Source: Pseudomonadota bacterium | Lineage (GTDB): Bacteria > Pseudomonadota > Gammaproteobacteria > Burkholderiales > JBFMAC01 | Assembly: GCA_040756015.1 (NCBI GenBank) | Contig: JBFMAC010000004.1 | Span: 132,278-196,277, forward strand | Reading direction: 5' to 3' | Length of the DNA: 64,000 nucleotides | Part shown: in pieces, positions 33,175-53,595 of the stretch | How positions within the stretch are numbered: position 1 is the first letter of the stretch | How the letters are laid out: each line of letters begins with the position of its first letter | Program-made: the position numbers and the translations under genes | Notes under the pieces: model-generated | What the model saw: the letters and a program-made list of their open reading frames with translations, nothing else | Database searches by the model: none | Told to the model about the DNA's origin: nothing

Positions 33175-33480
33175 ATGCAAATCAATGTCCAGACTATGAA
33201 TGACAAGGCGCGGATGAGCTTGCAGGGGCGTTTCGATTTCAACGCCCACCGCGAGTTCCGCCAATCCTACGAATCCTTGCTGGCGCCCACCGAGGTGAAG
33301 GAAATCGAGGTCGACCTGGGCGGGGTGGAGTACCTCGACAGCTCCGCACTGGGCATGTTGCTCATGCTGCGCGAGAAGGCCGGGGCCAGCCAGAAGCAAC
33401 TGGCATTGTCGAATTGCCACGGCACGGTGCGGCAGGTGCTGGACATCGCCAATTTCGACAAATTGTTCAGCATTCGCTGA
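33175..33480 (+). CDS. STAS-domain anti-sigma-factor antagonist (HsbA/SpoIIAA-like)
   Basis: 101 aa. VDLGGVEYLDSSALGMLLMLRE contains the conserved phosphorylatable Ser context (DSSALG). Confidence 0.85.
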   Translation: MQINVQTMNDKARMSLQGRFDFNAHREFRQSYESLLAPTEVKEIEVDLGGVEYLDSSALGMLLMLREKAGASQKQLALSNCHGTVRQVLDIANFDKLFSIR

Positions 33481-33493
33481 TCCTTACGCCACC

Positions 33494-35215: not shown

Positions 35216-35281
35216 ATTTGTTTGTACTGCCGGTGCAGGCCGGAAGTTTCTCCGGTCGATGCATGAGCGCATAATTGCTGC

Positions 35282-37550: not shown

Positions 37551-40109
37551 ATGAAGCGGGGCGCATTCTGGAAGTCCGAGTGGCTCATCGGCTTGGGGCT
37601 GGCTTTGCTGATGCTGCTTGTGGCGGGTGGCGACCTGATGCAGAGCCTGGAGCGCAAGGCCTACGACCTCGGCGTGCTGGCCTCCAGCCGAACCCCCAGC
37701 GATCGCGTCGCCGTGATCGCCATCGACGACCAGAGTATCTCCAACATCGGCCGCTGGCCGTGGTCGCGCGAGGTACACGCCAAAATGATCGACCTCCTCG
37801 CGGGAGCGCAGGCCAAGGTGGTCGGCAACACCGTGTTTTTCTCCGAGCCTCAGTCCGACGCCGGACTCGCCTACATCAACAAACTCAACAAATTTTTCTC
37901 CGCGTCCCGGTTCAGGAACGCAATTGATCCGGCATTGCAGCAGGAGGCCGTGCAGCTTGCCGGTATGTTGCAGGAGGCCGAGCAAGACTTGAACGCCGAC
38001 CGCAAGCTGGCGCAAAGCATTGCCCAGGCCGGCAACGTGGTGCTGGCGATGGCGTTCCAGTTGGGCGAGCCGCGCGGCAATCCGGATCACCCCCTGCCCG
38101 ACTACCTGACGAAAAACGCGCTGCCCAATGTCGTCGATGCGGGGGGCGCGGCGGAGATGGGGCTGCTGCCGCTGTCCACGCTGTCGGCGGTGGTGCCGAT
38201 CGCTGAGCTTGGCATGCAGGCGGCTGCCATCGGCTACCTCAACCTGACTCCCGACCACGATGGCGGGGTGCGCTCCGAGCCCCTCGTGCTGCGCCATTAC
38301 GACCACTATTACCCGTCGCTGCCCTTGCTGCTGGCGGCGAAGAGCCTCAACCTGCAAGCTGCCGATGTCCAGGTGGTGCTGGGCGAGGGCGTAAGTCTGG
38401 GCAAGCTGCATATCGCCACCGATCCCGAATTGCGCATGAACACGTTTTTCTACAGGGACGCGGAGCGGCCGGCGTTCCAGGTGGATTCGTTTTACGACGT
38501 CTATAGCGGCAAAATTCCCGTGAGCAAATACGCCGGCAAGATTGTGCTGATCGGCGCCACCGCGCAGGGCGTGGGCGCGCCGCAGGTGACGCCAGTGTCA
38601 CCTGCGATGGCGCCGGTGCTGGTGCTGGCGCATTCGGTGTCGAGCATTCTGCAGGAGGACTTTTTCGTCGTGCCAGGCTGGGGTGTGTGGGCGGAGAAAG
38701 GCGTGTTCCTGCTTGTCGCGCTGTACCTGATGCTGGCGTTGCCGCGCCTCAAGGCAGGGCTGGCGGCGCTGTTTACCGCGCTGCTGTTCGTTGCCCTGCT
38801 GATCGCGCATTTCGCGCTGATGGTGGGGCAGTCGATGTGGCTGCAACTGATGACGCCGGCGGCGCTGTTGCTGATTGGCCATCTGCTGCTCACCACCAAG
38901 CGCTTCCTGGTGACCGAGCGCGGCAAGGAAAAATCCGAGGCAGAGTCGGCCGAGTCGAACCGCATGCTGGGCCTGGCGTTCCAGGGGCAGGGCCAGCTCG
39001 ATATGGCGTTCGACAAATTCCGCAAGCTGCCGATGGACGACGGTGTGATGGATCTTCTCTACAACCTGGCGCTCGATTTCGAGCGCAAGCGCCAGTTCAA
39101 CAAGGCCGAGGCGGTGTACCAGCACATGGCCGCCTACAACGCGAAATTCCGTGACCTCGAACAGAAGCTCAGCCGCGCCAAGGCGATGTCGGAAACCGTG
39201 ATCCTGGGCGGCGGCAGCGCCAGCGCGGCGATCAGTGGTACCGTGCTGATGGCGGGCGGTGGCGTGGAAAAGCCGATGCTGGGCCGCTACCAGGTGGAGA
39301 AGGAACTGGGTAAGGGCGCCATGGGTGTGGTCTACATGGGGCGCGACCCTAAGATCGGTCGCGTGGTGGCGATCAAGACAATGGCGTTGTCTCAGGAGTT
39401 CGAGGAAGACGAGTTGCAGGAGGTCAAGGAGCGTTTTTTCCGCGAGGCGGAAACGGCGGGACGGCTCAGCCATCCCAACATCGTCACCATCTATGATGCC
39501 GGCGAGGAGCACGACCTTGCCTATATCGCCATGGAACTGCTGAAAGGCAAGGACCTGGTACCCTATACCAAGCCAGATAACCTGTTGCCGCTGCCGAAAG
39601 TGCTGTCCGTCATCGCGCGCGTGGCCGATGCGCTGGGCTATGCGCATGCGCAGCATGTGGTGCATCGCGACATCAAGCCGGCTAATATTATGTATGAGCC
39701 GGAAGACGACATGGTAAAGGTGACCGATTTCGGCATCGCGCGCATCACCGATTCGAGCAAGACCAAGACCGGTATGGTGCTGGGCACGCCGTCGTACATG
39801 TCGCCGGAGCAGTTGGCGGGCAAGAAGATCGACGGGCATTCCGACCTCTTTTCGCTTGGGGTGACCTTGTACCAGTTGTGTTGCGGGCAACTGCCTTTTC
39901 AGGGTGACTCGATGGCGCAACTGATGTACAAGATCGCCAACGACCCGCCGCTGGATATCCGTACCCTGCGTCCCGATCTGCCGGTTGGCGTGGTGTTGGT
40001 GATCGCCAGGGCGATCGCCAAGCAGCCGGAGGCGCGTTACCAGACCGGCGAGGAAATGGCGCAGGCAATCCGCCAGTGTGCGGCGGCGATCAGCAACGAA
40101 GGAGCATGA
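37551..40109 (+). CDS. CHASE2-sensor transmembrane Ser/Thr protein kinase
   Basis: N-terminal CHASE2 (VAVIAIDDQSISNIGRWPWSR). TM cluster and TPR-like linker. Hanks kinase motifs GKGAMGVV, VAIK, HRDIKPAN, DFGIA, SPE. Confidence 0.9.
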   Translation: MKRGAFWKSEWLIGLGLALLMLLVAGGDLMQSLERKAYDLGVLASSRTPSDRVAVIAIDDQSISNIGRWPWSREVHAKMIDLLAGAQAKVVGNTVFFSEPQSDAGLAYINKLNKFFSASRFRNAIDPALQQEAVQLAGMLQEAEQDLNADRKLAQSIAQAGNVVLAMAFQLGEPRGNPDHPLPDYLTKNALPNVVDAGGAAEMGLLPLSTLSAVVPIAELGMQAAAIGYLNLTPDHDGGVRSEPLVLRHYDHYYPSLPLLLAAKSLNLQAADVQVVLGEGVSLGKLHIATDPELRMNTFFYRDAERPAFQVDSFYDVYSGKIPVSKYAGKIVLIGATAQGVGAPQVTPVSPAMAPVLVLAHSVSSILQEDFFVVPGWGVWAEKGVFLLVALYLMLALPRLKAGLAALFTALLFVALLIAHFALMVGQSMWLQLMTPAALLLIGHLLLTTKRFLVTERGKEKSEAESAESNRMLGLAFQGQGQLDMAFDKFRKLPMDDGVMDLLYNLALDFERKRQFNKAEAVYQHMAAYNAKFRDLEQKLSRAKAMSETVILGGGSASAAISGTVLMAGGGVEKPMLGRYQVEKELGKGAMGVVYMGRDPKIGRVVAIKTMALSQEFEEDELQEVKERFFREAETAGRLSHPNIVTIYDAGEEHDLAYIAMELLKGKDLVPYTKPDNLLPLPKVLSVIARVADALGYAHAQHVVHRDIKPANIMYEPEDDMVKVTDFGIARITDSSKTKTGMVLGTPSYMSPEQLAGKKIDGHSDLFSLGVTLYQLCCGQLPFQGDSMAQLMYKIANDPPLDIRTLRPDLPVGVVLVIARAIAKQPEARYQTGEEMAQAIRQCAAAISNEGA

Positions 40110-40933
40110 TGAGTTTGGTGAAGGTGTTGGAAATGGCAAGCGCGACCGATCCCGGCCTGGTGCGTTCGCATAACGAGGACAGCATTGCGGTCGATGCCGA
40201 CATCGGACTGGCGGTGCTGGCCGATGGCATGGGCGGTTACAACGCCGGCGAGGTGGCGAGTGGCATCGCGGTGTCGCTGATCATGAGCGAAATGCAACAG
40301 GCGCTGCCGTCGGTCGATCCGCACGCAGCGGGCGGCGTCAGCGGCGAGACCATCGGTGAGGTGCTGCTGCGTGACAAGATCGGGCGTGCCAATGCCTCGA
40401 TCTTCCAGGCTGCGATCAGCCAGCCGCAGTATGCCGGCATGGGCACCACGCTGGTGGCGGCGCTGTTTTACGATAACCGCGTCAGTGTCGGCCACATCGG
40501 CGATTCGCGCATGTACCGACTGCGCGCCGGGCAGTTCGAGCAGATCACGCGCGACCACTCGCTGTTACAGGAGCAGATCGACAGCGGCATGATCAGCAAG
40601 GAGATGGCGCGGCTGTCGCAGAACAAGAACCTGGTGACGCGCGCGGTGGGCATCGACCCCGACGTCGAGGCGGAAATCCATACGCATGCCGTGCAGGCGG
40701 GCGACATCTACCTGATTTGCTCCGACGGTCTCAACGACATGGTCGAGGACGAGGAGATCGGCGCCACGCTGGGCATGCTGGAAGCGAACCTGCCGCTGGC
40801 GGCGACACAGCTGGTGCAGATGGCCAACGACAACGGCGGGCGCGACAACATTTCAGTGATTCTGATAAAGGTGTTGAGCGAGTTTCCGGCGCAGGGTGGT
40901 TGGTTCGCAAAATTCCTATCGTGGTTTAAATAA
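40106..40933 (+). CDS. PP2C-family Ser/Thr phosphatase
   Basis: RSHNEDS, LADGMGG, GDSRMY and CSDGL motifs. ATGA overlap with the kinase stop. Confidence 0.9.
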   Translation: MMSLVKVLEMASATDPGLVRSHNEDSIAVDADIGLAVLADGMGGYNAGEVASGIAVSLIMSEMQQALPSVDPHAAGGVSGETIGEVLLRDKIGRANASIFQAAISQPQYAGMGTTLVAALFYDNRVSVGHIGDSRMYRLRAGQFEQITRDHSLLQEQIDSGMISKEMARLSQNKNLVTRAVGIDPDVEAEIHTHAVQAGDIYLICSDGLNDMVEDEEIGATLGMLEANLPLAATQLVQMANDNGGRDNISVILIKVLSEFPAQGGWFAKFLSWFK

Positions 40934-40945
40934 CGAGGTATTGCC

Positions 40946-41686
40946 ATGGCAAAGTTGATACTCAGTCTGGACGGTGCGGTGTTGCGCGAGATCGTGCTCA
41001 ACAAGGAGCGCACTACCATAGGCCGCAAGGAGCACAATGACGTCGTCATCGACAACCTGGCGGTGAGCGGCGATCACGCGCAGATCGTCAGCATCCTCAA
41101 CGACTCGTTCCTGGAAGACCTCGACAGCACCAACGGCACGCTGGTCAACGGCAACCCGATCAAGAAGCATTTCCTGCAGAACGGCGACGTTATCGAGATC
41201 GGCAAGTACAAGCTCAAGTATCTCAACGAAGGCGCGGCTGCCGGCCATGCGGCGGAAGAGTTCGAGAAGACCATGATCCTGCGGCCGTCCGCGCACACGC
41301 CTGCTGCGCCCGCGCCCAATCGTACCGGCGACGACACCCTGGTGAATACGCCGGCCTACTCGCCCGGGCGCGAAGAGGAAATGACCGCCAAGGTGGCGGC
41401 CATGCCGGCGGGCCATCTGCCGGTGGCCACGATCCAGTTGCTGAGCGGCCCGAATGCCGGCAGGGAACTGGAACTGGCCAAGACCCTGGTGACCATCGGA
41501 AAGCCGGGGGTGCAGGTGGCGGTGATCGCGCGCCGGCCGCACGGCTATTTCATCACCCATGTCGAAGGCGCTAATTTCCCGGTGCTGAACGGCAAGGTGC
41601 TTGATGCCCAGGCGCACCCGCTCAACGACCACGACGTGATCGAGCTGGCCGGCGTGAAAATGGAATTTTTCTTTAAAAGCGAGTAG
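40946..41686 (+). CDS. FHA-domain protein (canonical N-terminal FHA plus degenerate C-terminal FHA-like domain)
   Basis: TIGRKEHNDVVIDNLAVSGDHAQI...STNGTLVNG at the N-terminus. A Pro/Ala linker, then a second TIGKPG...VLNGKV module. Confidence 0.85.
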   Translation: MAKLILSLDGAVLREIVLNKERTTIGRKEHNDVVIDNLAVSGDHAQIVSILNDSFLEDLDSTNGTLVNGNPIKKHFLQNGDVIEIGKYKLKYLNEGAAAGHAAEEFEKTMILRPSAHTPAAPAPNRTGDDTLVNTPAYSPGREEEMTAKVAAMPAGHLPVATIQLLSGPNAGRELELAKTLVTIGKPGVQVAVIARRPHGYFITHVEGANFPVLNGKVLDAQAHPLNDHDVIELAGVKMEFFFKSE

Positions 41687-41726
41687 CGGCAAGGCAGCGG
41701 GACGCCCCATCCATTTACGGGACAGC

Positions 41727-43967
41727 ATGGAGAGACTCAAACAGAGTTGGGTGCGTATCGTTTTCGGGGTACTGCTCGTCCTGGTGTTTCTCGGCAACGC
41801 GATACACTTTTATTCCATCCCCTTCATCCAGCAGATCGAAGCGATCATTTACGATGCGCGCCTGCGCCTGACTATGTCGCGCAGCGTCGACGAGCGCATT
41901 GTCATCCTCGACATCGATGAGAAGAGCCTGGCCGCAGAGGGCCACTGGCCGTGGCCGCGCAACCGCATGGCCAGCCTGGTCGACAAGCTGTTCGACCGCT
42001 ACGGCATCGCCGTGCTCGGCTTTGACGTGGTGTGGGCGGAGAAGGACGAAAGCTCCGGCCTCAAGGTGCTAGACCAGCTTGCCGCGCGCGAACTGAAAGG
42101 CGATGGCGCCTACCAGGCGGTGTTGGCGCAGATACGTCCCAAGCTCGACTATGACGAATTGTTCGCCAGGTCGATCAAGGGCAGACGCGTGGTGCTGGGG
42201 TACTTCTTCTCCGGCGCGCTCGGCGACCAGGAGGCCACCACCACCGGCATGCTGCCCAAGCCGGCGCTGGTCGCCGGTACCTTCCAGGGCAGGAACATCC
42301 CCTTCATCGCCGCCACCGGCTACAGCGCCAACCTGCCGGTGTTGCAACAAAGCGCGGCGGGCGGGGGACATTTCACCCAGTTGCCGGACATCGATGGCGT
42401 GACCCGGCGCGTGCCGATGCTGATGGAGTACAAGGGCGCTTATTACGAAACCCTGTCGCTGGCGATGATGCGCGCCATGCTGGATTTCCCCGAGGTCGTT
42501 CCCGGCTATCCCGACGACGTATGGAGCAAAAGCTATCCGGGGCTGGAGTGGATCGAAGTGGGCGGCATGAAGATACCGGTGGACGAGAATGCACGTGCAT
42601 TGATTCCCTATCGCGGTCGCGCGGGCAGCTTCAAATACGTCTCCATCACCGATGTACTGCATGATCGCGTGCCGGCGGCGAGCCTCAAGGATAAGATCGT
42701 GATACTCGGCACCACCGCGCCGGGCCTGCTCGACTTGCGTTCCACGCCGGTGTCGCCGGTCTACCCCGGCGTCGAGGTGCACGCCAACCTGATTTCCGGC
42801 ATGCTCGACGGCGACATCAAGCAGAAACCTCCCTACGTGATGGGGGCAGAGTTCACCCTGCTGCTGGTTTCCGGCCTGCTGGTTGCGTTGCTGGTGCCGC
42901 TGCTCAGTCCGCTGCGCGCGACCCTGGTGACGCTGGCGGTGCTGGGCGCGGCGGTTGCGATCAACGTGGTGGTCTGGCATTACGGCAACCTGGTGCTGCC
43001 GTTGGCCTCCGGCTTGATGCTGATTTCGCTGATTTACGCGATGGACATGGCGTACGGCTTTTTTGTCGAGGCCCGCGCCAAGCGCCAGATCACCGGCCTG
43101 TTCGGGCAATACGTGCCGCCCGAACTGGTCGACGAGATGAGCAAGAACCCGGAGAACTTTTCGATGGCGGGTGAAAGCCGCGAAATGAGCGTGCTGTTCT
43201 CCGACGTGCGCGGTTTCACCAGCATCTCCGAGGGGCTGGACCCGAAGGAGCTGACGCAGTTGATGAACGAGTTCCTTACCCCTCTCACCAAGGTGATATA
43301 CAAGCACCGCGGTACCATCGACAAGTACATGGGCGATTGCATCATGGCGTTCTGGGGCGCCCCGCTCGACGATGCACAGCACGCGCGCCATGCCATCCTC
43401 GCCGGACTGGAGATGCAGAAGACGCTGCACGAATTGCAACCTTACTTCAAGCAGCGCGGCTGGCCGGCGATCGAGGTCGGCATAGGCGTCAACACCGGGC
43501 GCATGAGCGTGGGCAACATGGGTTCGGAGATCCGTCTGGCCTATACTGTGATGGGCGATGCGGTGAACCTCGCCTCGCGCCTGGAGGGCATCACCAAACA
43601 GTATGGCGTCGGCATGGTGGTGGGGGAGGCGACCAGGGAAAAGGTGCCGGATTTCGTGTTCCGCGAGCTGGATCGCGTGCGCGTGAAGGGCAAGGAGGCG
43701 CCGGTGGCGATCTATGAACCGCTTGGTCCTGCCGGGGAAGTTGCCCAAAGCGTGCTGGATGAGATTAAACTATTCCAGCAGGCGCTCAAATATTACCGCG
43801 CGCGGGATTGGGATCGCGCCGAGTTGCAGTTGCTCAACCTGCAAAAGACGGTGCCTGAAGGCTCGGAGTTCCATTTGTACCAGCTTTACCTTAAACGTAT
43901 TGCGCGTTACCGCGCCGAGCCGCCTGCCGGGGACTGGGACGGCGTGACGACATTCGAGACCAAGTGA
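41727..43967 (+). CDS. CHASE2-sensor class III adenylate/guanylate cyclase
   Basis: CHASE2 (IVILDIDEKSLAAEGHWPWPR) and TM cluster. Cyclase motifs VLFSDVRGFT, IDKYMGDCIMAFWG, MGDAVNLASRLE. Confidence 0.9.
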   Translation: MERLKQSWVRIVFGVLLVLVFLGNAIHFYSIPFIQQIEAIIYDARLRLTMSRSVDERIVILDIDEKSLAAEGHWPWPRNRMASLVDKLFDRYGIAVLGFDVVWAEKDESSGLKVLDQLAARELKGDGAYQAVLAQIRPKLDYDELFARSIKGRRVVLGYFFSGALGDQEATTTGMLPKPALVAGTFQGRNIPFIAATGYSANLPVLQQSAAGGGHFTQLPDIDGVTRRVPMLMEYKGAYYETLSLAMMRAMLDFPEVVPGYPDDVWSKSYPGLEWIEVGGMKIPVDENARALIPYRGRAGSFKYVSITDVLHDRVPAASLKDKIVILGTTAPGLLDLRSTPVSPVYPGVEVHANLISGMLDGDIKQKPPYVMGAEFTLLLVSGLLVALLVPLLSPLRATLVTLAVLGAAVAINVVVWHYGNLVLPLASGLMLISLIYAMDMAYGFFVEARAKRQITGLFGQYVPPELVDEMSKNPENFSMAGESREMSVLFSDVRGFTSISEGLDPKELTQLMNEFLTPLTKVIYKHRGTIDKYMGDCIMAFWGAPLDDAQHARHAILAGLEMQKTLHELQPYFKQRGWPAIEVGIGVNTGRMSVGNMGSEIRLAYTVMGDAVNLASRLEGITKQYGVGMVVGEATREKVPDFVFRELDRVRVKGKEAPVAIYEPLGPAGEVAQSVLDEIKLFQQALKYYRARDWDRAELQLLNLQKTVPEGSEFHLYQLYLKRIARYRAEPPAGDWDGVTTFETK

Positions 43968-44731
43968 TGAAACTGAGAGTGCTGGGATGCAGCGGGGGTA
44001 TAGGCGGGAAGTTGCGCACGACCTCGTTCCTGCTCGACAATGATGTGCTGATCGACGCTGGCAGTGGCGTCGGCGATTTGAGCATCGCCGAAATGGTGTT
44101 CATCGACCATATCTTCATCACCCATTCCCATCTTGACCATGTCGCCATGATTCCGCTGCTGGTGGATACCGTGGGCGGCATGCGCGACAGGCCGATCACG
44201 CTGCATGCCACGGAGGAGGTGCTGGATATCCTCAGGCAGCACATGTTCAACTGGAAGCTCTGGCCCGATTTCACCTGCATCCCCGATCCTGATCATCCAT
44301 TCCTGCGCTACCGCGCCATCGCCATGGGAGAGACAGTCACCTTGGATGGGCGCGCGATCACTGTGCTGCCCGCGGTGCACACCGTGCCGGCGGTGGGTTA
44401 CCAGATCGACAGCGGCAGCGCGAGTCTGGTGTTCACCGGCGACACCACAAGCCAGGAGGAGTTCTGGCGTATCGTCAACAGCATCGAGAACCTGCGTTAC
44501 CTGATCATCGAGACGGCCTTCTCCAACGCCGAGCGCGACCTGGCGATTGCTTCCAAGCATCTGTATCCGTTGTTGCTGGCGGAAGAGCTGGCCAAGTTCA
44601 AGCGCGAGGCGGAAATTTATATCACTCATTTGAAACCGGGCGAGATCGAACTGACGATGCAGGAAATCTACGATTGCGCGGCGCAATACCGACCGCATAT
44701 GCTTTACAACGGCAAGGTGTTCGATTTCTGA
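43964..44731 (+). CDS. Class-II 3',5'-cyclic-nucleotide phosphodiesterase (metallo-beta-lactamase fold)
   Basis: LRVLGCSGG start and THSHLDHVAMIPLL (HxHLDH signature). Start GTG 43964 or ATG 43967 overlaps the cyclase stop. Confidence 0.8.
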   Translation: MMKLRVLGCSGGIGGKLRTTSFLLDNDVLIDAGSGVGDLSIAEMVFIDHIFITHSHLDHVAMIPLLVDTVGGMRDRPITLHATEEVLDILRQHMFNWKLWPDFTCIPDPDHPFLRYRAIAMGETVTLDGRAITVLPAVHTVPAVGYQIDSGSASLVFTGDTTSQEEFWRIVNSIENLRYLIIETAFSNAERDLAIASKHLYPLLLAEELAKFKREAEIYITHLKPGEIELTMQEIYDCAAQYRPHMLYNGKVFDF

Positions 44732-44733
44732 TC

Positions 44734-45807
44734 ATGCCGCTGGATGCACAGACCTTGGCGCGGTTCGAGCCGTTTTCCTCCATGGCGGAAAAGACGGTGC
44801 GCCAGCTTGCCGCAGTGGGCGTGACGGTCAGGGCGCACCCAGGCGCCGATCCGTTTGCCGACAACGATTTCAGCCACCACTTGGTATACCTGATCCGGGG
44901 CGGGTTGCGCCTCGCTTACGGTGACAGCGAGGCCGAGGTGGTGGTGGCCGGCAGCGAGCAGGCACGCTATCCGCTGGGGCGCGACCGTCCCGGCCTGCTG
45001 GCGACACGCGCCATGGACGACGTCGAGCTCGCGCGCATGGACGAGGAGCTGGTCGAAACGGCGGTGGCGTGGGATCAGCTCACGCCGCCGGGGCAGGAAG
45101 CAGACGGCGAAGACCAGGCACGGCGCGCCGACCGCGTGGTCGACACCGGCATGTTCAGCGCGATGATGTTCAAATACGGTGTGCTGGCCATGTTGCCGCC
45201 GAAAAATGTCATCGACCTGATCGGCAAGATGCGCATGATGACGGTGCGGCGCGGCGATGTCGTCGTGCGCGAGGGAGACCCGGCCGATTGTTATTATATG
45301 ATCGAGAACGGCCAGGCACTGGTGACTCGTCAGGTTGGCGACCAGAATGTGGTGTTGGCCGAGCTGCGCAGCGGCGGGGCTTTCGGCGAGGACGCGCTGG
45401 TTTCCGGTGGTCAGCGCAACGCCACCGTGACGATGAAAAGCGACGGCATTTTGCTGACGCTGGAAAAAAGCGCCTTCCTGGATCTGATGCGCCGGCCGCT
45501 GCTCAACGAGCTGACCATGCCGGAAGCCGAGCAGCGGGTGGCAGCGGGGGCGGTGTGGCTTGACCTGCGTTACCCGCCGCAGTATCGGCGCGGCCGGCTG
45601 CCGGGGGCAGTCAACATCCCGCTCAGCGAATTGCGTACCGCGCTCAGTGTGCTCGACAAGAGCAAGGAATACGTGGTGTATTGCCATAACGGACGCAGCG
45701 GTGCCATTGCCGCTTTCGTCATGTCGGAGAACGGTTTCAAGGCTTATACCTTGAAGAACGGTTGGCAGCCGGAAGCGGCACCAATATCGCGCGAGGGATC
45801 GCTATGA
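44734..45807 (+). CDS. Tandem cyclic-nucleotide-binding domains fused to a rhodanese domain
   Basis: The second CNB has GDPADCYYMIENG...GGAFGEDALVSGGQRNATV (phosphate-binding-cassette-like). C-terminal rhodanese with VVYCHNGRSG. Start is 2 nt after the PDE stop. Confidence 0.8.
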   Translation: MPLDAQTLARFEPFSSMAEKTVRQLAAVGVTVRAHPGADPFADNDFSHHLVYLIRGGLRLAYGDSEAEVVVAGSEQARYPLGRDRPGLLATRAMDDVELARMDEELVETAVAWDQLTPPGQEADGEDQARRADRVVDTGMFSAMMFKYGVLAMLPPKNVIDLIGKMRMMTVRRGDVVVREGDPADCYYMIENGQALVTRQVGDQNVVLAELRSGGAFGEDALVSGGQRNATVTMKSDGILLTLEKSAFLDLMRRPLLNELTMPEAEQRVAAGAVWLDLRYPPQYRRGRLPGAVNIPLSELRTALSVLDKSKEYVVYCHNGRSGAIAAFVMSENGFKAYTLKNGWQPEAAPISREGSL

Positions 45808-48179
45808 ACACGATGTTCCAGAACAAGCCGGGCACGCAGGATAACCTGGCGGAGCGCCTGGGGTTTTCCAAGCAGTTGCAGGCGGTGACCAACAAGATCC
45901 ACTCCACCAGCAACATCGACGAGATCATGCTGGAAGTGAGCCAGGATATCTGCCAGTTGTTCAATGCCGACCGCCTGACCATCTATGCAGTGGCGGAGGA
46001 CAGATCGGCCATCGTTTCCAAGGTCAAGACCGGGCTCAATTCGTTCAAGGACCTGAAGCTGCCGATCAACGAGCAGAGCGTTGCCGGCTATGTCGCAGTG
46101 AACAAGGTGCCGGTCAACATCAAGGACGTTTACGACGATGTTGAGCTGCACTCGTTGAGTCCGCACCTGCATTTCCTGCAGGAAGTGGATCGCCGCACCG
46201 GTTACCGTACCAAGCAGATGCTGGTGGCGCCGGTGGTGGAATCGGCCAGCGGCGAACTGCTCGGCGTGGTGCAACTGATCAACAGCCGTACCGGGCAGCC
46301 GTTCCCGCAGATCGCGGAGGAGGGCGTGGGCACACTGGCCGAGACGCTGGCGATTGCCTTCAAGCAGCGGCAACGGATGAGCGGCACCTTGCGCGGCAAG
46401 TATGACGCGCTGGTGGCGAATGCGGTACTGTCGGCGGAGGAGCTGGAACTGGCCACGCGCTCGGCGCGGCGCAAGGGGATCAACATCGAGGACGTGCTGA
46501 TCGATGAATTCCAGGTCAAGGTCGGTGCCATCGGCGAGGCGCTGGCGGCCTTTTTCCAGGTGCCTTACGAGGGTTACCGCGCCGACCGCATCAAGCCGGT
46601 AGACCTGTTGAAGAACCTGAAGCGAGAATACGTGGAAAGCAGCGCTTGGTTGCCGGTGGACGACACCAAGGAGGGGCTGATCATCCTTACCACCGACCCG
46701 GAGCGGGTCAAGAGTTCGCGCATCGTCAACAACGTTTTCCCGAAAAGCAGGCTGGTCTACAAGGTCTGCACCCACCGGGAGTTCGTCAGCACGCTCGATT
46801 TGTTCTACGGTGGCGAGGCCACCATGGACGCCACTTCGATCGGCGATCTGCTGTCTACCATGAGCGATGAGGAATCCGAGGAGGCGATTGGTTCCAGCGA
46901 CGATATCTCCGCAGCCGCCGACAACGAACTGGTGAAGCTGGTCAACAAGATCATCGTCGATGCATATCACCAGGGTGCCTCGGACATCCATATCGAACCT
47001 TACCCGGGCAAATCCAAGACGGAAATCCGCTTCCGCAAGGACGGTACGCTGATGCCTTATATTTCCGTGCCGCCTTCCTATCGCAATGCGATTGCGGCGC
47101 GTATCAAGATCATGTGCGACCTGGACATCTCGGAAAAGCGCAAGCCGCAGGACGGCAAGATCAAGTTCAAGAAATTTGGCCCGCTCGACATCGAACTGCG
47201 TGTGGCGACCATACCATCGCAAGGCGGCGTCGAGGACATCGTGATGCGTATCCTCGCCGCCGGCGAGCCGATCCCGCTCGACAAGCTCGGCCTGAGCGAA
47301 TACAACCTGAAGACGGTGAAGGAAATCATCAGCAAGCCTTACGGCCTGTTTTTCGTGTGCGGCCCGACCGGTTCCGGCAAGACCACCACGCTGCACTCGG
47401 TGTTGGGGTATATCAATACACCGGAAACCAAGATATGGACAGCCGAAGACCCGGTTGAAATCACGCAGAAAGGCTTGCGCCAGGTGCAGATGAACCCCAA
47501 GGCGGGGCTGACCTTTGCGGTGGCAATGCGATCCTTTCTGCGTGCCGACCCGGACGTGATCATGGTGGGCGAGATGCGCGACAAGGAAACCACCGCAATC
47601 GGCATCGAAGCGTCGCTGACCGGCCACCTGGTGTTTGCCACCCTGCATACCAACAGCGCGCCGGAGTCCATCATCCGCCTGCTCGACATGGGTATGGACC
47701 CTTTCAACTTTGCTGACGCCATGCTGGGCATCCTGGCGCAGCGGCTGGCGAAGCGCCTGTGCGGCAAGTGCAAGCGGCCCTATCATCCCAGCGAGGATGA
47801 AATCCGTCTGCTGCTGGAGGAATATACCTTGGAGTTGCAGCACACCGCCAAGTGGAAAAAGGACCCGCAAGCGGCTTCCCAGGAAATTCTCGACGAATGG
47901 AAGAAGGGTTTCGGGGGGGGGGATGGGCAGTTCACGCTGTACCAGCCGGTGGGCTGCGAGGTGTGCAACAACACCGGCTACAAGGGGCGCGTCGGCCTGC
48001 ATGAATTACTGGTCGGCACCGATGCCGTCAAGAAGAACATCCAGGAACATGCGCGCGTGGCGGAGGTGCTGGCGACCGCGCTGGAAGACGGCATGCGGAC
48101 CCTGAAGCAGGATGGCATCGAAAAGGTGCTGTCGGGGATCACCGACATGAAGCAAGTGCGCGCAGTGTGCATCAAATAA
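45804..48179 (+). CDS. GAF + T2SSE_N + GspE/PilB-type hexameric secretion ATPase (orphan)
   Basis: 791 aa. N-terminal GAF (aa ~25-185), T2SSE_N-like region. Walker A GPTGSGKTT, Asp box EDPVE, Walker B VIMVGEMRD, His box GHLVFATLHTN. Tetracysteine CGKC...CEVC. ATGA overlap with the upstream gene. Confidence 0.9.
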   Translation: MNTMFQNKPGTQDNLAERLGFSKQLQAVTNKIHSTSNIDEIMLEVSQDICQLFNADRLTIYAVAEDRSAIVSKVKTGLNSFKDLKLPINEQSVAGYVAVNKVPVNIKDVYDDVELHSLSPHLHFLQEVDRRTGYRTKQMLVAPVVESASGELLGVVQLINSRTGQPFPQIAEEGVGTLAETLAIAFKQRQRMSGTLRGKYDALVANAVLSAEELELATRSARRKGINIEDVLIDEFQVKVGAIGEALAAFFQVPYEGYRADRIKPVDLLKNLKREYVESSAWLPVDDTKEGLIILTTDPERVKSSRIVNNVFPKSRLVYKVCTHREFVSTLDLFYGGEATMDATSIGDLLSTMSDEESEEAIGSSDDISAAADNELVKLVNKIIVDAYHQGASDIHIEPYPGKSKTEIRFRKDGTLMPYISVPPSYRNAIAARIKIMCDLDISEKRKPQDGKIKFKKFGPLDIELRVATIPSQGGVEDIVMRILAAGEPIPLDKLGLSEYNLKTVKEIISKPYGLFFVCGPTGSGKTTTLHSVLGYINTPETKIWTAEDPVEITQKGLRQVQMNPKAGLTFAVAMRSFLRADPDVIMVGEMRDKETTAIGIEASLTGHLVFATLHTNSAPESIIRLLDMGMDPFNFADAMLGILAQRLAKRLCGKCKRPYHPSEDEIRLLLEEYTLELQHTAKWKKDPQAASQEILDEWKKGFGGGDGQFTLYQPVGCEVCNNTGYKGRVGLHELLVGTDAVKKNIQEHARVAEVLATALEDGMRTLKQDGIEKVLSGITDMKQVRAVCIK
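47913..47922 (+). repeat. G10 homopolymer inside the GAF-GspE ATPase CDS
   Basis: GGGGGGGGGG encoding GGG(D). It is the longest mononucleotide run I noticed in the window. Confidence 0.9.
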
Positions 48180-48199
48180 TGCCGGCGGGGAGGTAAGCA

Positions 48200-49807
48200 A
48201 TGACCTTGCCCAATGCCGCTGATCTGCTGCGGCGGCTGGAGGAACTGAACCGTATCGGGGTGTCACTCTCCAAGGAGAAGGACATCGACCGTCTGCTGGA
48301 AGCCATCCTGCTCGCCGCCAAGACCATAGCTGGCGCGGATGGCGGCACGCTCTACCGCGTCCAAGACGGCAAGCTGCATTTTAAGATACTGCGCAACGAT
48401 ACCCTCAACATCGCCATGGGTGGTACCACCGGGGTGCCGATTCCCTTCGAACCGTTATCCATGTATGACGAGCAGGGCAGGCCGAACAATTCTATGGTGG
48501 TGGCCCATGCCGTGCTGCACGACGTCACCGTGAACATACCGGATGCGTATAGCGCGGAAGGCTTCGATTTTTCCGGCACGCGCCAGTTCGACAAGAAGAC
48601 CGGTTACCGCTCACAGTCGTTCCTGACCGTGCCGATGAAGGATCACGAGGAACAGATCATCGGCGTGCTGCAACTGATCAATGCCAAGCACCCCGTGAGC
48701 GGGGAAATCGTGCCGTTTGCCGAGGCAGACCAGCGCCTTGCCGAATCGCTGGCGTCGCAGGCCGCCATTGCGCTGACCAACCGCATGCTGATCAACCAGC
48801 TGGAAGTCCTGTTCGAATCTTTCATCAATTTGATCAACGCCGCGATCGACGACAAGTCGCCCTATACCGGCGGGCACTGCGCACGCGTGCCGGTGCTGAC
48901 CATGATGCTGGCCGAGGCGGTGAATAAAACTTCCGTCGGCCCGCTCAGGGATTTCCGCATGAGCGCGGCGGACTTTTATGAACTGAAGATCGCCGGCCTG
49001 TTGCACGATTGCGGCAAAGTGACCACGCCGGTGCATGTGGTGGACAAGGCGACCAAGCTGCAAACCATCTACGACCGCATCCACCTGATCGACACCCGCT
49101 TCGAGGTGGTCAAGCGCGACGCCGAGATAGCCATGCTGCGCAACGAGGCGGCCGATGGCGAAGGATCGCGTCGGCGCTGCCGTGAGGTGATGGAGCAGAT
49201 CAGCAGCGACCGCGAGTTCCTGCGCGCTTGCAACATAGGCAGTGAAAAAATGGACGAGGATGAGGTGCAGCGCGTCCACACTATTGCTGGGCGCTACCGT
49301 TGGCGCAATGAACGCGGCGAAGAAGTGCCTTTCCTCAGCGAAGACGAGGTGAAGAACCTAACCATTCGCAGCGGCACGCTCACGCCCGAGGAACGGCAGA
49401 TCATCAACCATCACATCGATGTGACCATCCAGATGCTGGAGGCGCTGCCCTGGCCAAAGCACCTGAAGAACGTGCCGGAATATGCCGGCGGTCATCACGA
49501 GCGCATGGACGGCAAAGGCTATCCGCGCGGGCTCACGCGCGAGCAGATGTCGGTGCAGGCGCGCATCATGGGTATCGCCGATATTTTTGAGGCGCTGACC
49601 GCACGTGACCGCCCATACAAGAAGGGCAAGACCCTCACCGAGGCGCTGCACATCCTCGGTAAATTCAAGCTGAACGGCCATATCGACCCCGACCTCTTCG
49701 ATGTACTCATCCGCGAAAAAGTCTACTTGAACTATGGCCACCACTTCCTGGAAGCGGAACAGGTGGATGAGGTCGACGAGCGCGCGATCCCCGGTTATGT
49801 GCCGTGA
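48200..49807 (+). CDS. GAF-domain HD-GYP phosphohydrolase (putative c-di-GMP phosphodiesterase)
   Basis: N-terminal GAF (TGYRSQSFLTVPM...IGVLQLINA). HD (LLHDCGK) and GGHHERMDGKGYP motifs. Confidence 0.9.
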   Translation: MTLPNAADLLRRLEELNRIGVSLSKEKDIDRLLEAILLAAKTIAGADGGTLYRVQDGKLHFKILRNDTLNIAMGGTTGVPIPFEPLSMYDEQGRPNNSMVVAHAVLHDVTVNIPDAYSAEGFDFSGTRQFDKKTGYRSQSFLTVPMKDHEEQIIGVLQLINAKHPVSGEIVPFAEADQRLAESLASQAAIALTNRMLINQLEVLFESFINLINAAIDDKSPYTGGHCARVPVLTMMLAEAVNKTSVGPLRDFRMSAADFYELKIAGLLHDCGKVTTPVHVVDKATKLQTIYDRIHLIDTRFEVVKRDAEIAMLRNEAADGEGSRRRCREVMEQISSDREFLRACNIGSEKMDEDEVQRVHTIAGRYRWRNERGEEVPFLSEDEVKNLTIRSGTLTPEERQIINHHIDVTIQMLEALPWPKHLKNVPEYAGGHHERMDGKGYPRGLTREQMSVQARIMGIADIFEALTARDRPYKKGKTLTEALHILGKFKLNGHIDPDLFDVLIREKVYLNYGHHFLEAEQVDEVDERAIPGYVP

Positions 49808-50253: not shown

Positions 50254-50275
50254 CGGCATGAGATCAGGAGCGGTG

Positions 50276-51247
50276 ATGGATTATCTTCCGATTTTCATGG
50301 ATGTGCGCGGCCGGTGCTGCGTGGTGGTGGGTGGAGGCGAGGTGGCGGCGCGCAAGGTGGCCATGCTGTTGCGCGCGGGCGCGCGCGTGACGGTGGTTTC
50401 GCCGCAACTGGTCGACGAATTGGAGCAGCGCAAACGTGGTGGTGAACTGGCCCACATCGATGCGACTTTTTCTCCCGCTTGCTTGGACGACGCAGTGCTG
50501 GTGATTGCCGCCACCGATGACAATGCCGCCAATCGGGCCGTCCATCAGGCTGCGCTGCAACGCCGCCTCCCGGTCAACGTCGTGGATGCACTGGAACTGT
50601 GTAGTTTCATCATGCCCTCGGTGCTGGATCGGTCACCGTTGTTGGTGGCGTTTTCCAGCGGCGGGCGCTTCCCCATGCTGACGCGCTGGCTGCGCGCCCG
50701 TCTCGAGACGCTGATTCCATCGGGTTATGGCAAGTTGGCACAGGTTGCCGGCGAATTGCGTGACGAGGTGCGCCGCCGCTTGCCGCAGCCGGAAAGCAGG
50801 CGGGCCTTCTGGCGCGAGGTACTGGAAGGCACCATCCCCGAGCGGGCGTCGTCCGACGATGCCGGGTCGGTAAGGTTGGCCATGCTCGACACACTGGAAA
50901 AAGCCGGCGGGGGGCAAAACACGGGCGAAGTCTGCTGGGTGGGGGTCGCTTCGCCGGAGCCGGATTTGCTGACTTTCCGCGCTTTGCGACTGATGCAGCG
51001 TGCTGACGTGGTTTTTTACGATCGCGCAGTAGGGAAGGGCGTGCTTGACTTGGTACGGCGCGATGCCGAGCAGCGTCCTGTTGCGGGGGGGGCGGTGGAT
51101 GATGTTATCGAGGCCATGCTTGCGCTGGCATGCGAGGGCAGGCATGTGTTGCGCCTGGCGGACGCCGAGGAGGGGGCGGAAAGGTTGCGCGAGCGCTGTA
51201 TCGCTGTAGGCATTCCTTGCCTAGTGTCGGGCATGCCCAAAAAATAA
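50276..51247 (+). CDS. Siroheme-synthase-like protein: precorrin-2 dehydrogenase/ferrochelatase domain plus truncated, degenerate methylase remnant
   Basis: MDYLPIFMDVRGRCCVVVGGGEVAARK (CysG N-terminal Rossmann). The C-terminal ~110 aa align to the start of the SUMT domain, but GAGPGD is replaced by GVASPEPD and the domain ends early. Confidence 0.75.
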   Translation: MDYLPIFMDVRGRCCVVVGGGEVAARKVAMLLRAGARVTVVSPQLVDELEQRKRGGELAHIDATFSPACLDDAVLVIAATDDNAANRAVHQAALQRRLPVNVVDALELCSFIMPSVLDRSPLLVAFSSGGRFPMLTRWLRARLETLIPSGYGKLAQVAGELRDEVRRRLPQPESRRAFWREVLEGTIPERASSDDAGSVRLAMLDTLEKAGGGQNTGEVCWVGVASPEPDLLTFRALRLMQRADVVFYDRAVGKGVLDLVRRDAEQRPVAGGAVDDVIEAMLALACEGRHVLRLADAEEGAERLRERCIAVGIPCLVSGMPKK

Positions 51248-51272
51248 GAGCGGCTCCGAAGAGCCGCTCTTA
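51238..51272 (-). terminator. Rho-independent terminator read on the minus strand
   Basis: TAAGAGCGGCTC-CGAA-GAGCCGCTCTTA, a 12-bp stem. On the minus strand it is followed by TTTTTT. It lies 58 nt downstream of the small ORF stop and directly after the cysG-like stop. Confidence 0.65.
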
Positions 51273-51329
51273 CCATGTCGAAGATGCAGAATAAGTTGCT
51301 AAGGCTGGGGGAGGCAGACCTTGAACGTC

Positions 51330-51464
51330 CTAGACGTGCATCTTCATCATGTAAGCACCCACGATAAACACATAAGTCGACACGACGCTGACCAAGGCAA
51401 CAAGCAGGGTCATCCCGGCGCCGGGGGTGCTTTTCTTGGGCCGCGAATTTCCAGTGTTTTTCAT
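51330..51464 (-). CDS. Small hydrophobic peptide (44 aa), unannotated in the ORF track
   Basis: GGAGAaacttgATG. MKNTGNSRPKKSTPGAGMTLLVALVSVVSTYVFIVGAYMMKMHV: a basic N-terminus plus one TM helix. Bracketed by a sigma-54 promoter match and a terminator. Confidence 0.4.
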   Translation of the reverse strand: MKNTGNSRPKKSTPGAGMTLLVALVSVVSTYVFIVGAYMMKMHV

Positions 51465-51527
51465 CAAGTTTCTCCTTGTCATTACTCGTACCAATCAACC
51501 TATGAGGTTGTGTCCGCACCTCTATAA

Positions 51528-51542
51528 GCAATGTATGTGCCA
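51528..51542 (-). promoter_or_regulatory. Sigma-54 (-24/-12) promoter candidate
   Basis: Minus strand reads CTGGCACATACATTGCTT, i.e. TGGCAC-N5-TTGC. It lies about 65 nt upstream of the small-ORF ATG. Confidence 0.55.
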
Positions 51543-51682
51543 GGATATAAATATCAATAAAAACAATGGATAAATCCGTGCCTAGGGAATGTTGAGGCGG
51601 TTGTACAAGACTATATCGTTGCCATTCGACGACAAACAAAGTCAGGCAAACTTTAACAAGCTGTATTTATTGGTTATTTTTG

Positions 51683-51700
51683 TGTCGTTATTTTGCGACA
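51683..51700. promoter_or_regulatory. Inverted repeat TGTCG-N8-CGACA, possible enhancer-binding-protein site
   Basis: TGTCGTTATTTTGCGACA about 150 bp upstream of the sigma-54 element in an AT-rich tract. The spacing does not match the NifA TGT-N10-ACA site. Confidence 0.25.
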
Positions 51701-51722
51701 GATTCACGCTGGTCGCGTTTGG

Positions 51723-52270
51723 TCACGCCTGCCGGACGGACGGAGGCTCTATCGTGTCGATGTGGAAAGGGTATCTGCCGGTTTTGCGGTCAACGTAATA
51801 GCGCCTGAGCGCCTGCCGTATACAGTTAAACGCGAGCTCATTCCAAGGAATGTCGACCTCCGCAAACAGTTTTACTTCCAGCGACTCCGTGCCGGGGCCG
51901 AAGTCCAGGTCAAGCAGCCTGCTGCGGAACAACATATACACTTGGTCGATATGGGGCAGGTTGTATAAGGCATACAAGTCCCCGATCTCGACGCGCGCGT
52001 GGGCTTCTTCCAGTGTTTCCCGCAGCGCGCCCTGGGTCACGGTTTCGCTGTTTTCCATGAAACCGGCCGGCACCGTCCATAAACCGTAGCGCGGTTCGAT
52101 GGCGCGCCGGCACAGGAGTATCTTGTCCTGCCATTCCGGGATGCAGCCGACGACGATCTTGGGGTTTTGGTAATGGATGGTGTGGCAGTATCGCAGACGT
52201 AACGCGGCAGAGAATCCCCTTCGGGTATTTTCAGCGTTACCGGGGCGCGGCAATGGCTGCAAAAATTCAT
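51723..52270 (-). pseudogene. Zinc-ribbon Nudix hydrolase interrupted by a 1-nt frameshift
   Basis: [28 protein letters not shown] (frame of ORF 52037-52282) continues as [15 protein letters not shown]...[21 protein letters not shown] (ORF 51723-52262). The shift falls near 52186-52192, inside the second CxxC pair. Confidence 0.7.
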
Positions 52271-52406
52271 GGGCAATTCCAAATTTGTACAGCCCTAATC
52301 ATAGTGGAACGGGAGCAATCAAAAAAGTGGTGATGATGTGGCAGGGTGCCTTGAGAAAAATTGCCGTCCACATTATGGTTACGCTTCTTGATGCAAAAGG
52401 AGCGGC

Positions 52407-52615
52407 ATGGAAGAACAACGCGTACATCCACGATTCCGGTTTCATGGCGGGCCGTGATCCAGCTGGCGCAAGGGGTGGCGGCGACACGGATCAGCGGGAT
52501 GATCAAGGTGTTTCCCTGGGCGGGGTCTGCTTCCTGTGACCTGTCCCCCATTTTCAGTACCAGTCTGAAGTCAGTAAAGTCCGCTTTTTGCGTGCACGGC
52601 GGAAATCTCTGAAAC
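52407..52615 (+). pseudogene. Possible decayed PilZ-domain gene (multiple frameshifts)
   Basis: AAGGAGcggcATG, then MEEQRVHPRFRFHGGP* (RxxxR). Neighbouring frames read AVIQLAQGVAATRISGMIK and then VSLGGVCFL (DxSxxG-like). Needs at least 3 single-base corrections, so this is speculative. Confidence 0.25.
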
Positions 52616-52821
52616 AATTCGGACGGGGACGTTGCGGCTGCCCGCTAACCTGGTGGGGCACGGGTCGGCAATGCTAACAGTGGTGCAAGTGATCCTTGTG
52701 GACGCGAAATCGCTGGCCAGGTATGCGAAGGCGTGGAAAATGGCGATGTCCCCATTACCGTTAAATTTCGATCCCGTTCGATGCGGTTATCATTGCAGCC
52801 ATTCCTTGTGAGGGGCTTGTC

Positions 52822-53589: not shown

Positions 53590-53595
53590 GCACGC

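Follow-up and report, generated by a model that had tools for sequence, protein, structure and literature searches.

Positions 37551-49807 of the 64,000-nucleotide stretch analysed here (the window) hold a sensory operon of eight genes, g1 to g8, that is conserved in Betaproteobacteria and whose output is predicted to be a cyclic-nucleotide-gated motor ATPase of the PilB family. The most likely role of this motor would be to modulate the extension of type IVa pili, and we give this reading as a whole about an even chance of being correct. Every part of the operon is of a known kind, and the control of type IV pilus motors by second messengers is likewise known; it is the combination that appears to be new. 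We found no description of a GAF-fused PilB or of this operon in the literature, in agreement with a first-pass annotation of the window, which knew of no characterised system of this composition.

The eight open reading frames (ORFs) are intact, lie on the + strand and are separated by junctions of -4 (ATGA), +12, +40, -1 (TGATG), +2, -4 (ATGA) and +20 nucleotides (nt). All coordinates and overlaps in the first-pass annotation were reproduced, and nearly all of its domain calls hold in Pfam. Domains were assigned by profile searches against Pfam and NCBIfam, and catalytic motifs were also read from the translations. The genes are as follows:

37551-40109, + strand: g1, CHASE2 sensor, transmembrane segments, TPR-like linker and Hanks-type Ser/Thr kinase; 852 amino acids (aa)
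40106-40933, + strand: g2, PP2C Ser/Thr phosphatase; 275 aa; start overlaps the g1 stop (ATGA)
40946-41686, + strand: g3, FHA domain (aa 15-95), Pro/Thr-rich linker and degenerate FHA-like domain (aa ~160-246)
41727-43967, + strand: g4, CHASE2 sensor, transmembrane segments and class III nucleotide cyclase; 746 aa
43967-44731, + strand: g5, putative cyclic nucleoside monophosphate (cNMP) phosphodiesterase of the metallo-beta-lactamase (MBL) fold; 254 aa; start overlaps the g4 stop by 1 nt
44734-45807, + strand: g6, degenerate domain resembling a cyclic-nucleotide-binding (CNB) domain, canonical cNMP-binding domain and rhodanese with catalytic Cys; 357 aa; accessory
45804-48179, + strand: g7, GAF-fused hexameric motor ATPase of the PilB family; 791 aa
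48200-49807, + strand: g8, GAF and HD-GYP phosphodiesterase; 535 aa

Conservation of the operon

When one genome per species was scanned with g7, relatives came up in at least 593 genomes. The best 80 of these are all from Betaproteobacteria, at 67-75% identity, and their carriers include Gallionella, Sideroxydans, Sulfuricella, Nitrosomonadaceae, Rhodocyclaceae, Propionivibrio, Methyloversatilis and Noviherbaspirillum; among the cultured carriers are Chitinimonas viridis (CECT 7703) and Parachitinimonas caeni (DQS-5). To compare gene order we used 87 related loci, holding approximately 10 kb on either side of the ATPase gene, and searched them by tblastn with all eight proteins, counting the 53 loci with enough flanking sequence. 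Homologues are not scattered through related genomes, which the first-pass annotation had named as a sign against a single unit. The genes g1-g5, g7 and g8 occur in the same order in 32 of the 53 loci, of which 19 have these seven and 13 have all eight; four loci hold the PP2C, FHA, phosphodiesterase, CNB, ATPase and HD-GYP set and the remainder hold smaller subsets. Genes g5 and g7 are found together in 45 loci and g7 and g8 in 47; the kinase, PP2C and FHA genes are adjacent in at least 40. Orthologues of g1, 59-70% identical, occupy the same position in relatives, and the median junction lengths there are 11-88 nt. The conserved core is seven genes, with g5-g7 and g7-g8 as the tightest pairs. 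The eight-gene composition first proposed holds for these seven but not for the CNB-rhodanese gene g6, which is optional, being present in approximately 40-45% of related operons (at about 40% identity) and absent from more than half.

Chance cannot account for the arrangement, since dozens of species-level genomes repeat this gene order, and its recurrence across Betaproteobacteria bears out the original proposal of one functional unit. The opposing view, that these are independent signalling genes that have become neighbours by chance, draws on the fact that the domain families are common and promiscuous and that partial clusters exist. However, order and strand are kept in dozens of species despite different flanks, the junctions are overlapping or very short, and both g6 homologues that were looked up lie inside the same operon. 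We give chance neighbourhood next to no probability, and synteny effectively refutes it.

The limits of the unit can be read from the same comparison. In the window, relA ends 88 nt upstream of g1 and a convergent cytochrome c gene lies downstream, both at the positions first reported. The flanks vary by lineage, with relA here, TctABC in one relative (L082) and sucD-TerC-Usp in Gallionellaceae and Nitrosomonadaceae; because the flanking genes differ between lineages, the conserved block starts at g1 and ends after g8. The relA and cytochrome c genes, which the first-pass annotation had treated as part of the setting of the unit, are not conserved beside it in relatives and are incidental neighbours. 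Internal promoters or terminators, also named as a sign against a single unit, do not exceed the expectation from shuffled sequence (2 promoter-like sites inside the unit against 3.6 expected, and 13 terminator-like sites against 13.2), and nothing in the scan speaks against a single transcript. Upstream of g1 it showed no obvious promoter. A search with Rfam over the whole window returned two tRNAs only, with no riboswitch or structured RNA near the operon.

The unit is rearranged in three loci from Noviherbaspirillum and a relative (L042, L064 and L070), where the cyclase, HD-GYP and phosphodiesterase genes are found upstream of the GAF-ATPase gene and in the opposite orientation to it, at a lower identity of 41-59%.

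The GAF-fused ATPase and its probable link to type IVa pili

The protein encoded by g7 is divided as follows:

aa about 23-190: GAF domain
aa ~198-340: MshEN-like N1 domain, degenerate
aa 373-791: N2 and catalytic domains
aa 665-707 (47796-47924, + strand): family-specific insertion of about 43 aa between the two CxxC motifs, unaligned against PilB and PilF

Pfam identifies GAF, MshEN (1e-6) and T2SSE in this protein. Residues 201-791 align end to end with PilB of Myxococcus xanthus (3jc8, E 3e-109), and the matches to Thermus thermophilus PilF (E 4e-106) and Geobacter PilB (E 1e-101) are close behind. Across 66 family members there is no variation in Walker A and Walker B, in the His box or in the four zinc-binding Cys, and the sequences GPTGSGKTTTL, DPDVIMVGEMRD and GHLVFATLHTNSA are likewise invariant. 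The zinc motifs of g7 itself are CGKC (aa 653-656) and CEVC (aa 718-721), and all four Cys are conserved in the family. The insertion between them is poorly conserved in the family (mean column identity 0.58) and is about 20 aa shorter in the Nitrospirota homologue. When scored against the NCBIfam models for PilB (TIGR02538; 492 bits, cut-off 675.65), GspE (453 bits, cut-off 630.25) and TfpB (388 bits, cut-off 850), g7 falls below the threshold each time. Because of these scores below equivalog cut-offs and the insertion of about 43 residues between the CxxC motifs, g7 appears from its sequence to be a distinct GAF-fused clade within the PilB/GspE superfamily.

The first-pass annotation had labelled g7 a secretion ATPase of the GspE type. 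This label gives way to PilB, since the PilB match covers the full length at E 3e-109 while the match to Vibrio cholerae EpsE/GspE is weaker (E 4e-95) and its alignment starts only near aa 360. That g7 nevertheless powers type II secretion in the manner of GspE, or another pseudopilus system, is very improbable. Pfam T2SSE covers both families and the GspE and PilB scores of g7 are near each other, but the N-terminal region aligns with the N1 domain of the PilB, PilF and MshE type and not with the GspL-binding N1E domain of EpsE, none of the 87 loci contains gsp genes, and the neighbours are type IVa major pilins (PF00114) rather than pseudopilins.

The MshEN-like region of g7 has lost the features through which such domains recognise cyclic di-GMP (c-di-GMP). 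The c-di-GMP motifs of MshEN read RLG...Q, and the Arg and Gln are essential (PMC12943098). In the register given by the PilB alignment, motif 1 of g7 is GKY...A (aa 198-221) and motif 2 is NIE...F (aa 227-250), so that both Arg and both Gln are absent, together with most Gly, and the family keeps K199 and D201 instead. The MshEN fold itself is retained, as the Pfam match indicates. We rejected c-di-GMP binding by this region on the absence of the motif residues, and by the published criterion it is unlikely. Of the c-di-GMP module first proposed, the HD-GYP enzyme g8 stands, but the MshEN region of g7 does not carry the residues for binding. A tentative suggestion, which we rate at appreciably less than even, is that gating by a cyclic mononucleotide bound to the GAF domain functionally replaces the MshEN c-di-GMP site, with phosphothreonine control of the motor or the cyclase.

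The association with type IVa pili comes from the surroundings of the operon in other genomes. All ORFs in the related loci were clustered, and prepilins were counted by motif scan over the 66 loci with room. One neighbour recurs, a protein of about 150 aa whose gene follows the HD-GYP gene in the same orientation at a distance of 130-700 nt and in some loci is present in two or three copies. It matches Pfam Pilin (PF00114) and N_methyl, i.e. it is a type IVa major pilin. In 34 of the 66 loci a prepilin ORF is found on the same strand no more than 1.5 kb downstream; counting both strands and a distance of up to 4.5 kb, the figure is 41. None of the 66 has one upstream of the unit. The linkage is present in both cultured strains (L038 and L048), in a minimal Nitrosomonadaceae operon (L030) consisting of the phosphodiesterase, GAF-ATPase, HD-GYP and pilA genes, and also where the HD-GYP gene is missing (L051 and L083). 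The pilin gene is often followed by Wzy_C (O-antigen ligase family), GT41-TPR or GT2 glycosyltransferase genes, or a membrane-TPR gene, which by their domains resemble a pilin glycosylation island. Since a pilin gene follows in about half of the related loci, the operon probably controls pilus extension. The ATPase had first been described as an orphan; this is true within the window, but not of the 34 relatives in which a type IVa major pilin lies close downstream.

One gene of the window outside the operon also bears on this question:

31194-31562, + strand: pilZ, matching Xanthomonas PilZ XAC1133 (3cnr, 4f48, 7lkm) over its full length, E 1e-42

It lies 14 kb upstream of the GAF-ATPase gene in the order fabF-pabC-mltG-tmk-holB-pilZ (26551-31197 upstream), which we take to match the arrangement in Pseudomonas aeruginosa. 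PilZ is a PilB-binding partner in Xanthomonas. As the window encodes a PilZ orthologue, the host probably has a type IVa pilus system.

The GAF-ATPase family extends well beyond these operons. We searched the GAF and N1 region of g7 against 1.8 billion representative proteins, without profiles, and obtained 259 clusters at E <= 1e-30, some with extra N-terminal domains. Full-length members occur in Nitrospirota (Ca. Nitrobium, Magnetobacterium and Magnetoovum) and in Thermodesulfobacteriota/Desulfobacterales, and the Nitrobium protein shares 44% identity with g7 along the entire length. The GAF-PilB-like motor is an old, widespread family, whereas the signalling operon and the pilin linkage were seen, within the sampling, only in Betaproteobacteria. 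In three Nitrospirota and Thermodesulfobacteriota genomes the GAF-ATPase gene stands alone, with no pil or signalling genes within 10 kb. The neighbourhoods of these distant members contain no conserved partner genes, and the operon context is therefore lineage-restricted.

Several of these findings weigh against a role in pilus extension. The stand-alone position in other phyla means that the family needs neither the operon nor adjacency to pilA; the scores of g7 fall short of all three equivalog cut-offs; the 64-kb window contains no pilin gene, and no other pilus-machine gene beside the operon; and a nearby pilin gene is missing from 25 of the 66 relatives (about 38%). They form the case for a GAF-ATPase that is not a pilus extension motor at all, serving another machine or signalling instead, with the adjacent pilin gene a matter of inherited synteny. 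To this case can be added the family-specific insertion in the zinc-binding module and the signalling role in exopolysaccharide regulation that is documented for M. xanthus PilB (PMC5544727). Against it, g7 keeps the full PilB architecture of N1, N2, catalytic domain and zinc motif, together with the invariant catalytic motifs, and pilin genes follow the operon in the separate lineages of Gallionellaceae, Nitrosomonadaceae, Rhodocyclaceae and Chitinimonas, even without the HD-GYP gene. The stand-alone position is weak evidence because extension ATPase genes are often apart from the genes of the pilus machine. We consider a non-pilus ATPase somewhat unlikely and prefer an extension motor. No pilC or pilM gene was identified in the loci examined. 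In all 87 loci the 10 kb around the gene are free of a second ATPase of the T2SSE family, and the 64-kb window has no further paralogue of the ATPase.

In a Methylophilaceae metagenome-assembled genome (MAG; locus L060, 3316-5630 and 9830-12340) the GAF-ATPase gene occurs alone, 5.6 kb downstream of presumed pilD-coaE-zapD genes; these labels were read from N-terminal sequences, unconfirmed by Pfam. Among the ORFs next to the presumed pilD there was neither a member of the ATPase cluster nor anything resembling pilC, a hint that the GAF-ATPase is perhaps the sole PilB-type motor there. In five other loci (L001, L002, L015, L016 and L018) a second gene resembling a Ser/Thr kinase and an M48 peptidase/TPR gene recur downstream, several kb past the pilin genes.

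Cyclic nucleotide and phosphothreonine modules

The first-pass annotation described a writer, eraser and reader set for a cyclic mononucleotide and another for phosphothreonine, and both fit the catalytic motifs. The presumed writer of the first set, g4, matches CHASE2 (4e-58) and Guanylate_cyc (1e-21) in Pfam, and among adenylate cyclases its catalytic domain is closest to P. aeruginosa CyaB (3r5g, E 6e-37). It contains FSDVRGFT, YMGDCIM and NLASR, with both metal-binding Asp and the transition-state Asn/Arg pair kept. The specificity residues are Lys (in TIDKYMGD) and Thr (in AYTVMGD), as in CyaB. Synechocystis Cya2, which is the closest structure to g4, has Glu at the first of these positions; the related chain of 6fht, a fusion of bacteriophytochrome and adenylate cyclase, has Lys there, with tidKfmgd in place of the tidEfmgd of 2w01. 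By its residues g4 would be a class III adenylate cyclase (IIIb), and the Lys and Thr at the specificity positions make cyclic AMP (cAMP) its likely product.

The presumed eraser, g5, matches Lactamase_B_2 (1e-15) and, only over aa 46-103, PDEase_II (1e-10); the latter region contains the HxHxDH motif, here HSHLDH. The best solved structure is an uncharacterised MBL hydrolase (6kns, E 2e-8), and yeast PDE1 (4ojv) matches the same region at 8e-5. Against the NCBIfam model "cyclic nucleotide-degrading phosphodiesterase" it scores 32 bits, for a cut-off of 400. It is also similar to Apyc1 proteins, which are cyclic-nucleotide phosphodiesterases of the MBL fold. We therefore describe g5 as a putative cNMP phosphodiesterase, a substrate suggested mainly by its near-obligate pairing with the GAF-ATPase.

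The accessory protein g6 matches cNMP_binding (4e-19) and Rhodanese (5e-14) in Pfam. Its N-terminal third has no sequence-level match, and hhalign against a CNB domain is weak (E 3.5e-3, probability 9%). In an AlphaFold2 model with a predicted local distance difference test (pLDDT) of 86, this third is a CNB-like beta-barrel, and the best Foldseek matches of the model are tandem-CNB proteins of the PKA-R/PKG type over 250-290 columns. On the model, the N-terminal domain appears to be degenerate and CNB-like, so that of the CNB-CNB-rhodanese order first given, the second CNB and the rhodanese are secure in sequence while the first CNB is seen in the AlphaFold2 model only. In a betaproteobacterial MAG (L084 8902-11050, GCA_022705135.1) the CNB-rhodanese gene is tandemly duplicated within the operon.

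A cyclase in an operon with a kinase and a phosphatase could also point to anti-phage defence based on cyclic nucleotides, similar to Pycsar and with a kinase/phosphatase switch. The cyclase matches PADLOC PycC models (best 4e-32), the kinase matches PD-T4-6 kinases, and g5 is similar to the Anti-Pycsar Apyc1 family, with precomputed Pfam matches to Anti-Pycsar_Apyc1 in g5, where the match is weak, and in its orthologue in L084. We judge this extremely improbable. The PADLOC matches are generic ones at the level of class III cyclase and Hanks kinase domains, while g5, g6, g7 and g8 match no PADLOC model and an effector of the TIR, transmembrane or nuclease kind is lacking. The locus is a stable, vertically conserved chromosomal one, with 60-75% identity across families, and not a variable island. 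The specificity residues of g4 also point to cAMP, not to cyclic CMP or cyclic UMP.

The second candidate output of the operon, g8, matches GAF and HD-GYP (HD_5) in Pfam and aligns with the GAF-HD-GYP protein PmGH (4mcw, E 1e-29) in two pieces, aa 110-287 and aa 389-505. The HD and HHExxDGxGYP motifs are kept, as LLHDCGKV and GGHHERMDGKGYP, and the His and Asp metal ligands align with those of PmGH. It also matches V-cGAP3 (5z7c, 9e-21), a phosphodiesterase of cyclic GMP-AMP (cGAMP). By its motifs g8 would be an HD-GYP phosphodiesterase, with c-di-GMP or cGAMP as the substrate. An insertion of about 100 aa (aa 288-388) splits the HD-GYP domain. A GAF-associated insertion in HD-GYP has been described in Leptospira LIC_11189 (PMC12943098), and that of g8 may correspond to it.

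The two outputs have in common the kind of GAF domain that they carry. That of g7 matches the cAMP-binding GAF of Anabaena CyaB2 (1ykd) at E 9e-25, and that of g8 matches PDE5 GAF-A (1e-14) as well as CyaB2, PDE2A and PDE10A. The two are 31% identical to each other and, as judged from these matches, are paralogous and resemble the cNMP-binding GAF domains of the PDE2/5/10 and CyaB1/2 type. In Tlr0485 of Thermosynechococcus, which is a GAF-HD-GYP protein, c-di-GMP hydrolysis depends on binding of cAMP to the GAF domain (10.1101/2021.11.05.467447). From this precedent and from the presence of a cyclase and a phosphodiesterase in the operon we infer cAMP as the probable GAF ligand. Three points count against the scheme at this level: residues of the NKFDE type are only partly kept in the GAF domains, where ligand specificity is unreadable from sequence; the likeness of g5 to class II phosphodiesterases is limited to the HxHxDH region; and HD-GYP enzymes can also hydrolyse cGAMP, as the V-cGAP3 match of g8 illustrates.

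The phosphothreonine set is made up of g1, g2 and g3. The kinase g1 matches CHASE2 (8e-52) and Pkinase (8e-54), with weak TPR matches at aa 455-575, and its GxGxxG, VAIK, HRD and DFG motifs are intact; its CHASE2 domain is 27% identical to that of g4. The phosphatase g2 scores 245 bits against the NCBIfam Stp1/IreP PP2C model, above the cut-off of 230 bits, and matches Pfam PP2C_2. In g3 the N-terminal FHA domain is clear (Pfam FHA 1e-21, with GR...SGDH...NG). The C-terminal domain aligns with it by hhalign (probability 89%, E 2e-6) and has a weak Yop-YscD_cpl match, but is without GR...SxxH. The FHA-FHA architecture first proposed thus holds for the N-terminal domain, whereas the second is a degenerate FHA-like domain without the residues that bind phosphothreonine. 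Taken together, g1-g3 have the features of a kinase/PP2C/FHA module for threonine phosphorylation, with catalysis predicted.

Proposed mechanism and relation to known systems

In the mechanism that we propose, two paralogous CHASE2 membrane sensors, in g1 and g4, would respond to an extracytoplasmic cue. The g4 sensor would make cAMP and the MBL-fold phosphodiesterase g5 would reset the signal. The cAMP would bind the GAF domains of g7 and g8 and, in some lineages, the CNB-rhodanese protein g6 as well. On g7, binding would turn the motor hexamer on or off; on g8, it would activate hydrolysis of c-di-GMP or a related dinucleotide, and the two responses would jointly shift the cell between pilus-active and sessile states. 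The g1 kinase, the g2 PP2C and the g3 FHA adaptor would add a phosphothreonine layer, with g3 probably docking on the phosphorylated kinase, cyclase or ATPase, as Fha1 does in type VI secretion. The motor g7 would serve the type IVa pilus machine beside canonical PilB, as an extra extension ATPase that is active only under certain conditions. Of this scheme, the sequences show the gene order and how far it is conserved, the domain identities, the catalytic and specificity residues, the lost MshEN motif and the pilin linkage in relatives; we infer the cAMP ligand, the direction of regulation, the kinase substrates and the engagement of the motor with the type IVa pilus machine.

The nearest relatives of g7 are the PilB/MshE-type ATPases, such as M. 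xanthus PilB, V. cholerae MshE and the PilB-PilZ-FimX system of Xanthomonas. They share with it the N1-N2-catalytic architecture and the tetracysteine zinc module, a gene that adjoins the major pilin gene in many genomes and, as predicted for g7, the principle that a nucleotide second messenger controls the motor directly by way of an N-terminal receptor domain. In contrast to them, g7 adds a GAF domain of the cNMP type and the zinc-module insertion, has lost the MshEN Arg and Gln and scores below their family cut-off, and its gene lies in an operon with kinase, phosphatase, FHA, cyclase and phosphodiesterase genes, not with pilC and pilD. A precedent for an additional PilB-like motor is TfpB of Acinetobacter baylyi, a second, distinct extension motor on one type IVa pilus machine (PMC11656802). 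However, g7 does not score as TfpB (388 bits against the cut-off of 850), and TfpB has neither a GAF domain nor a signalling operon. A 2024 review of how PilB is regulated (PMC11656802) is silent on GAF and FHA and gives cAMP a role only through Vfr-dependent transcription. Current accounts of regulation at the level of the motor centre on c-di-GMP, through MshEN or through FimX and PilZ, and on cofactor or inhibitor proteins.

In the case of g8, Tlr0485 and PmGH (from Persephonella) have the same GAF-HD-GYP architecture, and all metal ligands are shared. The cross-talk from cAMP to c-di-GMP in Tlr0485 is, by analogy, that proposed for g8, which differs from both proteins in its insertion of about 100 aa within HD-GYP and in an operon shared with a presumed cyclase, a phosphodiesterase and a GAF-gated motor.

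Hanks kinase, PP2C and FHA proteins are likewise encoded together in PpkA/PppA/Fha1 of type VI secretion and in FhaA/FhaB-PstP-PknA/B of actinobacteria. Pathways of the PpkA/PppA/Fha1 type act post-translationally on a large ATPase-driven envelope machine. The present system differs from them in having a CHASE2 sensor, a presumed type IV pilus machine as the target and a single operon shared with a cAMP module. The Pil-Chp/CyaB/CpdA/Vfr system of P. aeruginosa also ties a class IIIb cyclase and a dedicated phosphodiesterase to type IV pili. There, cAMP acts via Vfr and the cyclase is under chemosensory control, whereas here GAF domains of the motor and of the HD-GYP enzyme are the predicted readers, a CHASE2 sensor is part of the cyclase itself and the phosphodiesterase is of the MBL fold, not of the CpdA type.

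If the proposal is correct, the operon would make it possible to test whether a cyclic mononucleotide can control a pilus motor directly, and it would be a natural example of an MshEN input site replaced by GAF and a genetic handle on CHASE2, a sensor domain that is still without a ligand. It would also mean that post-translational control of pilus dynamics by three messengers (phosphothreonine, cAMP and c-di-GMP) is widespread in environmental Betaproteobacteria. The carriers include iron oxidisers (Gallionella and Sideroxydans), ammonia oxidisers (Nitrosomonadaceae) and wastewater Rhodocyclaceae, groups that are mostly uncultured and ecologically important and in which surface attachment, aggregation and DNA uptake matter. 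At least two cultured strains of the Chitinimonas group carry the operon.

Elsewhere in the window, the region around relA is dense in signalling genes. A second HD-GYP protein, REC-HD-GYP of the RpfG type, is encoded just downstream of pilZ (31924-33021, - strand). Directly upstream of relA is a response-regulator fusion of REC, a SpoIIE-type PP2C and HATPase_c_2, the last similar to anti-sigma kinases (33494-35215, + strand). For the 601-aa ORF antisense to it (33467-35272), which is probably spurious, Pfam gives no match. Beyond the operon, positions 50258-56000 encode a CysG-like siroheme synthase, a modABC-like molybdate ABC transporter, an AhpC/TSA peroxiredoxin, an ABC-F protein and MoeA. 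The two tRNA genes of the window are tRNA-Arg(CCT) at 55570-55644 (- strand) and tRNA-Asn at 4245-4320 (+ strand).

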